UHGV virus genome: UHGV-0166071
Source of the DNA: a virus
DNA length: 37,836 nucleotides
Direction: 5' to 3' (one strand)
The notes below the pieces were generated by a model. That model did not search any database, was not told where the DNA came from, and was given only the letters and a program-made list of their open reading frames with translations. Shown here one piece after another: positions 5,784-8,393 of the stretch. The position numbers and the translations under genes were made by a program. The stretch's first letter is position 1; every line of letters begins with the position of its first letter.

Positions 5784-5813
5784 GCCCTTCTTCAGGGCTT
5801 AATTTTTAAGAGC
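5784..5813 (-). promoter_or_regulatory. nutL: nutL (boxA GCTCTTAAAAATTAA, boxB GCCCTGAAGAAGGGC)
   Basis: Minus-strand reading gives AGGCTCTTAAAAATTAAGCCCTGAAGAAGGGCAGC, the lambda nutL boxA/boxB arrangement with a perfect boxB stem, about 175 nt upstream of the N start. Confidence 0.75.
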
Positions 5814-5859
5814 CTCACCTTCATGGTGGTCAGTGCGTCCTGCTGATGGGTAAACTTTA

Positions 5860-5925
5860 TCGAAATGATAAATTAATGGCAATAGCAAAATGATAAATTT
5901 CTTTGATTTTAAAATATCATATTGA
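5860..5925 (-). promoter_or_regulatory. putative oL/pL region with repeated operator motif
   Basis: Two identical AAATGATAAATT copies (5863-5874, 5888-5899) and a variant (5912-5923); on the minus strand TTGCCA-17nt-TAAAGT promoter-like hexamers overlap them; located upstream of nutL and N. Confidence 0.45.
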
Positions 5926-6080
5926 TTTTCATGGTGTTTTATTTTTGTTGCAGGAATTCGACAGGAGAAATGAAGAGGCTTGAGGGAGATCTGGATTGCG
6001 TGGTTTAGCAAGTTGTATTTATCAATTTTTCACTAAATACAATTGGTTATGTGTTTTTAGGTGGGGCGATCGTGAGGCAA

Positions 6081-6104
6081 AGAAAACCCGGCGCTGAGGC
6101 CGGG
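6081..6104 (-). terminator. intrinsic terminator downstream of the peptidase gene
   Basis: Minus-strand CCCGGC-ctcagc-GCCGGG hairpin followed by TTTTCT, about 30 nt after the stop at 6135. Confidence 0.6.
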
Positions 6105-6134
6105 TTGTGAGGAATTAATTACAGAGCAAAGAGA

Positions 6135-7136
6135 TCATGCATTAGGTTGCTGTTCATCTGGTGGTTGAATTGATACGGCTCCAATTCCTTCTTGATCTCG
6201 TTCAGGTGTTGTTCCGCTTTTTTTGCCAGATCGTGACCTTCTTGGATCTGGCTTTCCAACATCTTGTTGAGAATTTCCATCTCCGGTTGCAGATTCTTCG
6301 GCATTAGCTTTTTCCTCTTTTTGTAGATACGTTGTACAATCAATAACCCTCGGCTTTCCAAATGTTGGAATGTCACCATTATGAATTTTGTCACAGAAAA
6401 GATTATAGAGTATTTCTGTTATACCTTTAGGATGCTCAACACACTTGAAAAGTTCCTTGGCTTCTTTTCTGTCGATAACAAATCCATGTGAAGGATATGA
6501 GGCTATTAGTTTGCCTAACGCCCCTTCTTTTAGGCTGCTTGGTTTGTCTGCTAATCGTTGGCCATAAGTGATAGCTATACTCATTGCGCGCTGATGTTCA
6601 CCAAGCTTTATTGGATCTATCTGTGCGGCCATAGGTGCTATCAACGCTTCTGTAAGTCTGGTCGCGATATCAGCAGACATTTTGGTACTTATCTGATTTT
6701 CGTATCTTATCTTAACAAGGTGTGAGTTAAACGCTGAAATAGAGCGTTCCTTTAGAGCATCAAGAGCTGTCATGATAGCTAAACCAGAACTCATCTCACC
6801 TATTTCATCGTTTTTTTTCAGTTGGATATCTAATGGCCCAAGCTCCCCCATGTCACCAATAACAAGTTTATTGGCTGCTATAGCTATTAGTGTACCAGCA
6901 CTTTTGCATGGTCCAACAACTAAAAGTGTTACCGTTTCATAATGGTGCTGTAGAGCTCTACCTATACGATAACCTGCATTTGGATCACCGCCATAAGTAG
7001 CAACACAGAAGATAACATTCTCTTTTAATCCATGTTGTGACTTACGTTTCTTGATTTCATTGGTGAGATCAAGATAACCATCACGATGAATATCGCCTGT
7101 ATACACATAAACATCATGATTTTCAATAGAATTCAT
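6135..7136 (-). CDS. ClpP/S49-fold serine peptidase-like protein (SDH-type), 333 aa
   Basis: Motifs VATYGGDPNAGYRIGRALQ and VVGPCKSAGTLIAIAANKLVIGDMGELGPLDIQ resemble the nucleophile region of ClpP/SppA-type peptidases; A/T-rich third codon positions throughout; occupies the rexAB slot between pL and the repressor gene. Confidence 0.65.
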   Translation of the reverse strand: MNSIENHDVYVYTGDIHRDGYLDLTNEIKKRKSQHGLKENVIFCVATYGGDPNAGYRIGRALQHHYETVTLLVVGPCKSAGTLIAIAANKLVIGDMGELGPLDIQLKKNDEIGEMSSGLAIMTALDALKERSISAFNSHLVKIRYENQISTKMSADIATRLTEALIAPMAAQIDPIKLGEHQRAMSIAITYGQRLADKPSSLKEGALGKLIASYPSHGFVIDRKEAKELFKCVEHPKGITEILYNLFCDKIHNGDIPTFGKPRVIDCTTYLQKEEKANAEESATGDGNSQQDVGKPDPRRSRSGKKSGTTPERDQEGIGAVSIQPPDEQQPNA

Positions 7137-7302
7137 TCGTTAAACTCCCTGCTGTGGTTACGATGAATGTATTCATGTTGAAGCTAAGCCATAGCGGCTT
7201 GTCATCATCACCAATCTGGCGGAATTGACTGTTCATAAATCACAATTGGAATTACCCAAACGTCTCTTCAGGCCACTGGCTACCAGCTATGTGACGATGA
7301 AG

Positions 7303-8007
7303 TCACGAATTTTTCAGCCACTCCCTTGCCTCGATGTCATCCAGATGGCGAGATTGCTTCAGAATACCAGCCACATACTCCACCTTTGCTACTTGATGAT
7401 AAGGCAACGTTATTGGCCTGTGGTCCTGGTTAATGCTTGTAAATTGGTATTCTCCATCTCTGTCATAGCCAAGAACCTTAATCATGTTGTGTCCTTCAAC
7501 GGTTCTGACAAACACCTCATCACCCGGGAATACTTTGGTGTTAGGCTCAATGAGTACATATTCTCCTGATTTTATTCTGGGCCACATGCTGTCTCCTTTC
7601 ACACGAAGACCAAAGGCATCTGGATCATCGCTATAAATTTTGAGCCACCCATCGCGCTCTTCGGTCATCTCGATGGCACCATCAACACCAAGAATTGCCT
7701 CACCAACCACGCGCACTAACCCTTTTCTTACCTGACCTACAAAAGTTAAAGAATCTGAGCATGATGCAATTGGTGTTACATCATGTACCAAATCAAGCCA
7801 CCCATTAGGTAACCCAAGTGCAGCTTCAAATTTTCTTGCTAGTTTATCCCCTATGTTTCGAGTGCTTTTTTCACCGGAGACTTGCGTGAGTTGAGAAGGG
7901 CTAACCCCAAGCTTATCGGCAAAGCTTGCATTAGTGTTACCCGCGATTTTTTTATGCTCATCTAGCAAAAACGCCAGATTCGATTTGCGAATATCTTTGT
8001 TTTCCAT
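7303..8007 (-). CDS. CI-like prophage repressor (HTH plus S24 LexA-like peptidase domain), 234 aa
   Basis: N-terminal HTH (SFADKLGVSPSQLTQV), C-terminal S24-type region (RVKGDSMWPRIKSGEYVLIEP..); divergent from the Cro-like gene across an operator-rich spacer. Confidence 0.85.
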   Translation of the reverse strand: MENKDIRKSNLAFLLDEHKKIAGNTNASFADKLGVSPSQLTQVSGEKSTRNIGDKLARKFEAALGLPNGWLDLVHDVTPIASCSDSLTFVGQVRKGLVRVVGEAILGVDGAIEMTEERDGWLKIYSDDPDAFGLRVKGDSMWPRIKSGEYVLIEPNTKVFPGDEVFVRTVEGHNMIKVLGYDRDGEYQFTSINQDHRPITLPYHQVAKVEYVAGILKQSRHLDDIEAREWLKNS

Positions 8008-8029
8008 CTCACAATTCTCCCTCTATTTA

Positions 8030-8112
8030 GCAAATGGATAAATACGCAATATGATAAATTTACATTGCAGTTGATTTATCAAAATGGTAAAGTTATTCTG
8101 TATGATAAACGG
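8030..8112. promoter_or_regulatory. oR-type operator/divergent promoter region (pRM/pR)
   Basis: ATGATAAAT-type motifs at 8032-8043, 8049-8060, 8072-8083 (inverted) and 8101-8112; candidate pR TTGATT-17nt-TATTCT; GGAGG Shine-Dalgarno before the Cro-like ATG at 8121. Confidence 0.5.
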
Positions 8113-8120
8113 AGGCACTA

Positions 8121-8354
8121 ATGAGTAATGAACTACTACGCTGGCGAAAAGAGGCTTCTAGTGAGGAATGGAAGCGACTCGCCGCATTAGCGAAAACTTC
8201 AGTTGGCTATCTTGACCAGATTGCATATGGATTTCGAAGAGCTTCCCCTGATAAAGCGAATGCAATCGAAGAAGCTACTCGTAATTTCACGGCTTATAAA
8301 CCCGTGAAAAAGGAAAACCTAGTGTTCGTATCGCGTAGAGCATCAGCAGCATAA
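8121..8354 (+). CDS. Cro-like regulator (YdaS/DUF1019-like HTH), 77 aa
   Basis: First gene rightward of the operators; ..KANAIEEATR.. resembles YdaS-family Cro-like proteins (assignment from memory). Confidence 0.7.
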   Translation: MSNELLRWRKEASSEEWKRLAALAKTSVGYLDQIAYGFRRASPDKANAIEEATRNFTAYKPVKKENLVFVSRRASAA

Positions 8355-8361
8355 ATAACCC

Positions 8362-8393
8362 CGCTCTTACACATTCCAGCCCTGAAAAAGGGC
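8362..8393 (+). promoter_or_regulatory. nutR: nutR (boxA CGCTCTTACACATTCCA, boxB GCCCTGAAAAAGGGC)
   Basis: CGCTCTTACACATTCCAGCCCTGAAAAAGGGCA matches lambda nutR as recalled, directly after the Cro-like stop. Confidence 0.8.

Follow-up and report, generated by a model that had tools for sequence, protein, structure and literature searches.

Layout of the immunity region

We examined the genome UHGV-0166071, a viral stretch of 37,836 nucleotides (nt) that we refer to in full as the window, and focused on its immunity region at positions 5784-8393, in which a repressor gene (cI), a divergent cro gene and their putative left and right operator regions (OL and OR) lie between the antiterminator gene N with nutL on one side and nutR on the other. 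The window is a lambdoid prophage, ~100% identical to one that adjoins ybhC in E. coli STEC346; after nutR its genes follow in the order cII, O and DnaB-type helicase, and no stx gene lies between Q and the holin gene. Positions 5849-5935 form an AT-rich zone of promoters and operators, and 113 bp separate cI from cro. A sequence-only reading of this DNA had proposed that the region is a hybrid, in which lambda-type N, nutL and nutR are combined with a repressor, a Cro-like protein and operators that are not those of lambda. The elements on which this proposal turns are listed below, with the strand in parentheses.

5285-5611 (-): N antiterminator, lambda type, 108 amino acids
5612-5759 (-): N leader, AU5Stx1/mEp506 type, non-lambda (segment alignment)
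5784-5814 (-): nutL, with boxB GCCCTGAAGAAGGGC at 5784-5798 and boxA GGCTCTTAA at 5806-5814, in a zone 99% identical to lambda
7303-8007 (-): cI repressor, H-19B type, 234 amino acids
8121-8354 (+): cro, H-19B type, 77 amino acids, predicted all-alpha helix-turn-helix (HTH) protein
8355-8397 (+): nutR island, lambda type, with boxA CGCTCTTA at 8362-8369 and boxB GCCCTGAAAAAGGGC at 8379-8393

The claim that N and both nut sites match lambda held with one exception. N is identical to lambda N at 97/108 residues (Pfam N36, 91.9 bits), residues 1-60, which include the boxB-binding arginine-rich motif, being unchanged; the boxB of nutL and both the boxA and the boxB of nutR are likewise identical to lambda, and each boxB forms a hairpin with a stem of 5 bp and a pentaloop (nutR boxB hairpin z-score -2.6). 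The exception is the nutL boxA, which reads GGCTCTTAA vs. CGCTCTTAA in lambda, with G for C at position 1 (C5814 on the + strand). An Rfam scan of positions 4500-10000 gave no match at E <= 0.1.

An H-19B immunity module in a lambda N/nut setting

Comparison of the repressor with known immunity types, which the sequence-only reading had recommended, assigned it to a characterised one. The cI protein is identical to that of the Stx1-converting phage H-19B (GenBank AF034975) at 233/234 residues, the sole difference being a conservative C-terminal substitution (N233S), and Cro is identical to H-19B Cro at 75/77 residues. The intergenic DNA between cI and cro agrees at 141/146 nt and has no difference at any base of OR1, OR2 or OR3; on the left, OL2 is unchanged and OL1 differs by one central base. 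Since repressor, Cro and operators are all nearly identical to those of H-19B, the immunity type would be immH-19B, and from these alignments it is very probable that region 5784-8393 consists of the H-19B immunity module (OL-cI-OR-cro) set between lambda-type N/nutL and nutR, and that it is a lambdoid mosaic. By megablast, the phages that carry the cI-OR-cro block at 95-98% identity are BP-4795, the Stx1 phage AU5Stx1, dozens of Stx1a phages and mEp506; BP-4795, AU5Stx1 and mEp506 have the same module at 96-99%.

According to the review PMC8065619, the operators and early promoter regions of H-19B were characterised experimentally (Shi & Friedman 2001, Mol Microbiol 41:585), and the same review, citing that paper, gives four operators for the OR of H-19B. 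We count three strong OR sites and one weak candidate (8092-8110), and this weak, E. coli-type-specific OR4 candidate may be the fourth operator reported. A full-text literature search with the operator strings gave no match. The sequence-only reading had named two things that together would speak against it, a repressor of a characterised immunity type and a different operator for that type; the first was found, as the type is a characterised one. Because the non-lambda part is a known immunity type, the switch is one already known, immH-19B in a lambda N/nut setting, and the interpretation given by the sequence-only reading is correct, but not novel.

The region is set apart from each of its relatives by its surroundings. 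H-19B has the same cI, Cro and OR, essentially the same OL1 and OL2, and also the tImm zone; however, it has its own N of 127 amino acids and its own nut sites (boxB GCGCTGACAAAGCGC), where ours are lambda-type, and its OL-to-cI DNA is ~1.9 kb of unannotated sequence, where the window has a gene for a protease-like protein resembling the SDH family. BP-4795, AU5Stx1 and mEp506 share the cI-OR-cro block at 98% and OL at 89-92%, but differ in having 933W/H-19B-type N and nut sites, and other accessory genes at the rex position. The classical laboratory and natural hybrids, such as lambda imm434 and lambda imm21, have lambda N/nutL and nutR on either side of a foreign OL-cI-OR-cro block, and exchange of the immunity block between N/nut flanks is textbook lambdoid mosaicism. 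Our region resembles these hybrids in that N specificity is kept and both nut sites go with N rather than with the immunity block. Unlike them, it has immunity of the H-19B type, a nutR that is only a ~43-bp lambda island, an N leader that is not that of lambda and, to the right of nutR, a non-lambda module of cII, O and DnaB-type replication genes.

The mosaic joints adjoin the nut sites

We compared the region segment by segment with lambda, H-19B, AU5Stx1, BP-4795 and mEp506, and the hybrid structure was borne out. The N coding sequence is 93% identical to lambda; 86% of the N leader (5612-5759) aligns to AU5Stx1 at 97% identity, and only 20% of it matches lambda; and the nutL zone (5760-5848) is 99% identical to lambda. 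OL (5849-5935) is 89% identical to H-19B, the terminator zone (5936-6107) is 88-92% identical to all five phages, and positions 6108-7250 have no match in any of the five. The segment with cI, OR and cro (7251-8354) is 96-99% identical to H-19B, whereas the nutR island (8355-8397) is 100% identical to lambda over 95% of its 43 nt and has no match in the H-19B types. To the right of ~8397 the sequence diverges from lambda again (8398-8751): only 17% of cII has a match in lambda (77% identical), and the replication genes are O and a DnaB-type helicase gene, not O and P.

Both joints lie next to the nut sites, as had been claimed. The left joint coincides with the predicted +1 of pL (about 5847-5848), ~35 bp from the nutL boxA, and falls in a short sequence at which lambda identity ends and H-19B identity begins:

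5833-5849 (-): start of the predicted pL transcript, CCATCAGCAGGACGCAC, common to lambda, H-19B and all diverged relatives

This conserved start of the predicted pL transcript, located at a module joint, looks like a recombination linker. Relatives with a P22-like N, too, keep its initial ~14-17 nt (GCGTCCTGCTGATG on the + strand). The right joint, within CAGCAGCATAA, is at the stop codon of cro, which precedes the nutR boxA by 8 bp. The nut sites thus travel with N and not with the immunity block, which is expected because N recognises boxB. The N leader (5612-5759, - strand) is 97% identical to AU5Stx1 and mEp506, although their N protein differs, and its exchange amounts to two further mosaic joints within ~150 bp; the lambda N leader carries an RNase III site, and that leader is replaced in this prophage.

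Each module alone is common, but both junctions together occur in only 2/5,426 complete E. coli genomes, where the combination is contiguous (STEC346 at ~100% and EcE.CRE.COL at 95% identity). Exact copies of cI are present on 881 contigs, and those of Cro on at least 1,000. In STEC346 (NZ_CP091044.1) a second place matches part of 5780-8400, so a second prophage may share part of the region.

Conserved 19-bp dyads as predicted operators

The sequence-only reading had built the operators on a repeated 9-mer, ATGATAAAT, which it took to flank both pL and pR. The exact 9-mer has three copies in the window (5865-5873, 5890-5898 and 8051-8059). Of the coordinates that had been given for it, 8051-8059 was right, and 5866-5874 (which reads TGATAAATT), 5891-5899 and an inverted copy at 8073-8081 were each off by one. 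The copy at 8102-8110 is in place, with one mismatch (ATGATAAAC), and the inverted copy exists at 8074-8082, also with one mismatch (TTGATAAAT). An 8-mer core, TGATAAAT, has five exact copies, all of them within 5866-6024 or 8052-8081; the expectation from shuffling is 1.63 per window, and 5/100 shuffles reach five. Allowing one mismatch, the 9-mer is not enriched window-wide (11 found vs. 11.9 expected), and the signal is therefore one of clustering, not of count.

We then drew on seven lineages of relatives in which cI is 56-73% identical and the site layout is the same; in these the arms of the sites are invariant, while the spacers and flanks have diverged (alignments A7 for OR and A8 for OL). 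This pattern indicates that the operator unit is a 19-bp dyad, ATTTAKC-N5-GMTAAAT, of which ATGATAAAT forms the right arm plus two spacer bases. The repeat thus does mark the operators, as claimed, but as the conserved half-site of a dyad and not as the whole operator; this half-site nature had been missed, as had OR3 (8025-8043) and an extra copy of the core at 6017-6024.

An operator matrix was built from 25 sites taken from diverged relatives only (Pantoea, Klebsiella and metagenomes), with a null in which the maximum over 200 simulated windows averages 12.3 ± 2.4. The five highest of ~37,800 window positions are OL1 (23.3), OR3 (20.8), OL2 (20.5), OR1 (19.6) and OR2 (17.6). The predicted sites, to which no strand is assigned, are as follows.

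5855-5873: OL1, CTTTATCGAAATGATAAAT, the top matrix score; its 17-bp core TTTATC-N5-GATAAA is a perfect palindrome, and it overlaps the pL -10
5880-5898: OL2, CAATAGCAAAATGATAAAT, identical in H-19B; its centre is 25 bp from that of OL1
5912-5930: weak OL3 candidate, AAATATCATATTGATTTTC, matrix score 12.0
8025-8043: OR3, ATTTAGCAAATGGATAAAT, 14/14 consensus positions, same in H-19B, both arms invariant
8041-8059: OR2, AATACGCAATATGATAAAT, same in H-19B, position kept in all relatives
8074-8092: OR1, ATTTATCAAAATGGTAAAG, same in H-19B, right arm is the predicted pR -10
8092-8110: OR4 candidate, GTTATTCTGTATGATAAAC, placed over the predicted pR +1; its matrix score of 10.6 is in the null range

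Within OL2 the block GCAATAGCAAAATG-TAAAT is invariant in the seven lineages. Relatives keep the OL3 candidate at 32-33 bp from OL2, with the pattern TA-C...TG-T; for the OR4 candidate, the right arm GATAAAC is kept in H-19B, and the site is not conserved in the Pantoea and metagenomic relatives. Measured between centres, the distances are 16 bp (OR3/OR2), 33 bp (OR2/OR1), 25 bp (OL1/OL2) and 32-33 bp (OL2/OL3), a spacing that is conserved in all seven lineages and is unlike that of lambda.

Several other candidates were set aside. The extra exact copy of TGATAAAT at 6017-6024 falls upstream of the terminator, in a zone homologous to lambda. Neither H-19B nor BP-4795 nor lambda conserves it, it lacks a dyad partner, and its matrix score is -23.5; it is probably due to chance. 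Reading the motif as a site for integration host factor was rejected by eye, with no match to WATCAANNNNTTR. The region upstream of pckA has been said to resemble H-19B OR3 (PMC1151598); as an indirect test of the operators its best matches reached 12-13/17 bases, which is the chance level, and it was dropped. Two operator-like 19-mers far from the immunity region, ATTAATCGTTGTGATAACT (144-162, score 14.3) and CTTTCGCGTTACGCTCAAT (446-464, score 14.1), and a further matrix match at 30077-30095 have scores of 13-14, within the null range.

Promoters and a model of the switch

The predicted promoters and the terminator of the cI operon are placed as follows.

5854-5882 (-): predicted pL (promoter scan), -35 TTGCCA at 5882-5877, 17-nt spacer, -10 TAAAGT at 5859-5854
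8065-8093 (+): predicted pR (by eye, in register with pL), -35 TTGCAG at 8065-8070, 17-nt spacer, -10 TAAAGT at 8088-8093
8024-8032 (-): predicted pRM extended -10, TGCTAAATA, in the left arm of OR3
6085-6106 (-): tImm-like intrinsic terminator that ends the cI operon (terminator scan)

The -35 TTG and the -10 TAAA-T are invariant in the relatives (A7, A8). The same register is found at pL and pR: the operator starts 4 nt beyond the -35, and the -10 is contained in its distal arm. The same dyad in the same register at both promoters fits the proposal that one repressor would control both. At the pRM position, TG-n-TAAAT(A/G) is invariant in all seven lineages (A7), and the left arm of OR3, read on the cI strand, is likely to be the extended -10 of pRM, which would explain why this arm is always ATTTAGC.

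We infer the promoter start sites, the order of occupancy, any cooperativity and Cro binding, and on this basis propose that the switch would work as follows. In the lysogen, cI dimers would bind the 19-bp dyads ATTTAKC-N5-GMTAAAT. Because OL1 overlaps the spacer and -10 of pL, and OR1 those of pR, cI bound there would occlude RNA polymerase at both promoters; OL2 and OR2 would sit just upstream of the -35 elements, and OR3 would cover the extended -10 of the probable pRM. As cI has an S24 self-cleavage domain (Ser140/Lys177), RecA-stimulated self-cleavage should induce the prophage, after which these same operators would be targets of Cro, a YdaS-like HTH protein with a predicted all-alpha fold. 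The transcripts from pL and pR carry lambda boxA and boxB, so lambda-type N could modify RNA polymerase as in lambda, whatever the immunity type.

Repressor and Cro

The sequence-only reading was also right that both regulators differ from those of lambda: cI has only weak similarity to lambda cI, confined to the S24 domain, and BLASTP found no significant similarity between Cro and lambda Cro. The C-terminal part of cI matches Peptidase_S24 (PF00717, 59.3 bits vs. a gathering score of 23.3), with a predicted Ser/Lys dyad of Ser140 (within GDSM) and Lys177. In the strain table of PMC3610611, the homologous Lys178 of 933W cI is listed as the site of an ind- mutation. The N-terminal HTH_3 match lies under its gathering score (17.7 bits vs. 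23, E 0.0036), and the domain is conserved in relatives. The repressor is a domain mosaic: its linker and S24 domain (residues ~85-234) are ~94% identical to those of 933W-type cI, whereas the N-terminal DNA-binding domain is unrelated to that of 933W, so that a different operator specificity and immunity are expected. The C-terminal half is likewise identical between BP-4795 cI1a and 933W cI1b (PMC3430580). A search of PDB sequences with cI gave only spurious pseudoazurin matches.

AlphaFold modelled Cro with a mean predicted local distance difference test score (pLDDT) of 86.7 from an alignment of 33 sequences; from the single sequence the score was 61 and the model unusable. The best PDB match of the model is the N-terminal domain of YdaS from prophage CP-933P (8co2, 8c7k; template modelling score (TM) 0.67, root-mean-square deviation (rmsd) 1.9 Å), with 32% identity over 63 columns, followed by the XRE regulators C.AhdI, SinR and P22 c2. 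Similarity in sequence to YdaS is marginal (phmmer E 0.25), and a Pfam search of Cro gave no YdaS match. YdaS of CP-933P is, like this Cro, encoded divergently from the prophage repressor. As the modelled fold is all-alpha, the protein appears to be Cro-like by position and not a member of the lambda Cro family, which is alpha+beta. It belongs to its own compact family of 76-77 amino acids in Enterobacterales, and a divergent 77-amino-acid cro gene accompanies every cI relative (Pantoea, Klebsiella and metagenomic contigs). PADLOC (E <= 0.01) gave no match for cI or Cro.

A protease-like gene at the rexAB position

On the downstream side of cI, before the tImm-like terminator and at the position that rexAB takes in lambda, lies a gene that is not part of the H-19B module and is the only unstudied element within these coordinates.

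6135-7136 (-): ClpP/SDH-fold protease-like gene, 333 amino acids

Its open reading frame (ORF) falls below the Pfam gathering score for SDH_protease (PF01972, 29.6 vs. 31.3 bits) and well below the cut-off of NF047768 (36.7 vs. 250), belongs to PHROG 21683 (function unknown), and has no match in PADLOC (E <= 0.01) and nothing similar in H-19B, BP-4795, mEp506 or lambda. It has at least 1,574 homologues. An alignment of 15 of them (A6) shows an invariant CKSAGT motif, containing Ser79, together with invariant His and Asp residues, which is consistent with an active site like that of ClpP. In E. coli 98195 (L023) an identical copy of the protein is encoded after a lambda cI (98% identical). In Klebsiella (L016-18, a Rac-like YdaS/YdaT prophage) and Bartonella (L019-20), but not in Neisseria, genes for homologues come after prophage repressors that are unrelated. 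A literature search found no paper on an SDH-like protease as a defence gene. We tentatively suggest, from position and sequence and with more doubt than confidence, that this could be an undescribed gene for superinfection exclusion or abortive infection, expressed in the lysogen by co-transcription with the repressor; if so, it would be a protease-based counterpart of RexAB, 933W Stk or BstA.

The slot between cI and OL is a hotspot for accessory genes: it holds a HigB-family toxin gene and neighbours in BP-4795, HicABC in mEp506, a small ORF in AU5Stx1 and rexAB in lambda. In one relative (L010, 4890-5813) it holds a gene with a BstA_C domain; in L001 the slot is at 1799-3140, and in L002 at 1988-3118. 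A 91-amino-acid ORF in another frame (6119-6394, - strand) overlaps the 3' end of the protease-like gene; it has no family match, gave no match in PADLOC, and is probably not a gene.

Weighing of alternative explanations

Four other explanations were considered, two of which concern the operators. Were the 9-mer ATGATAAAT itself the operator, in separate direct and inverted copies and with no 19-bp dyad, the far better conservation of the right arm, (T)GATAAAT, over the left in OL2, OR2 and OR4 would be understandable, as these resemble single strong half-sites. However, in every lineage OL1, OR1 and OR3 form clear dyads whose spacer is fixed at 5 bp, ATTTAGC as the left arm of OR3 is invariant though it lacks the 9-mer, and the half-site in Pantoea is GCTAAAT, so that neither the 'A' of ATGAT nor the GAT forms the conserved unit. 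LexA/CI-type repressors bind as dimers, which also counts against this idea, and we regard it as improbable. We give still less credence, very little indeed, to the repeats being chance or generic AT-rich promoter sequence rather than repressor sites: the region is AT-rich, and the 9-mer with one mismatch is no more frequent than expected, but all exact copies of the core cluster in the two regulatory zones, the independently trained matrix selects exactly these sites as the top five of the window, the arms are invariant across seven lineages while the spacers vary, and the sites stand where operators are canonically found, in a module that, according to PMC8065619, had its operators studied in H-19B.

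The other two concern the module as a whole. It could be a decayed remnant in a cryptic prophage, its switch non-functional despite a sequence that looks intact; the host record is a chromosomal prophage, which may or may not be inducible, and RefSeq labels Cro a 'hypothetical protein'. Yet the annotated locus has intact copies of N, cI, cro, cII, O, the DnaB-type helicase gene, Q, the lysis genes, int and xis, the cI protein is one conservative residue away from H-19B cI, and every operator arm is intact, which leaves this explanation unlikely, though the least unlikely of the four. That the combination of lambda nut sites and H-19B immunity is an assembly chimera would account for the rarity of both junctions together, but it is contiguous in two independent complete genomes (STEC346 and EcE.CRE.COL), the joints lie in short sequences common to both parents, as homologous exchange predicts, and in a Klebsiella relative (L009), too, a cI of this family is accompanied by a lambda-type N (Pfam N36); we consider the chance of a chimera close to negligible. 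A functional H-19B-type switch operating through 19-bp dyads in a lambda N/nut setting remains the reading that we favour. Four points weigh against it. The promoter scan lists neither pR nor pRM, which were read by eye and from conservation; pR is absent from the list because TTGCAG plus TAAAGT falls under the 9-of-12 cut-off of the scan. The matrix scores of OL3 and OR4 do not exceed the null. OR3 and OR2, unlike the corresponding lambda sites, overlap by 3 bp with their centres 16 bp apart, and their simultaneous occupancy is uncertain. Finally, the nutL boxA carries G where lambda has C, although the nutR boxA is unchanged.

Significance

The finding carries little weight for basic biology, as it concerns the repressor, Cro and operators of H-19B and a known form of lambdoid mosaicism. 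The comparative footprint does yield a clean operator model, ATTTAKC-N5-GMTAAAT with an unusual spacing, that can be compared with the published H-19B footprints, and the cro gene (a 'hypothetical protein' in RefSeq) and the cI gene of a widespread prophage type can be given the annotation immH-19B. The one lead left to follow is the accessory gene that resembles a protease. For the host, a prophage that lacks Stx but has H-19B immunity, in an E. coli strain that makes Shiga toxin (STEC), should confer immunity to H-19B-type Stx1 phages; it would share its repressor pool with any H-19B-type phage, which bears on the spread and induction of Stx phages.

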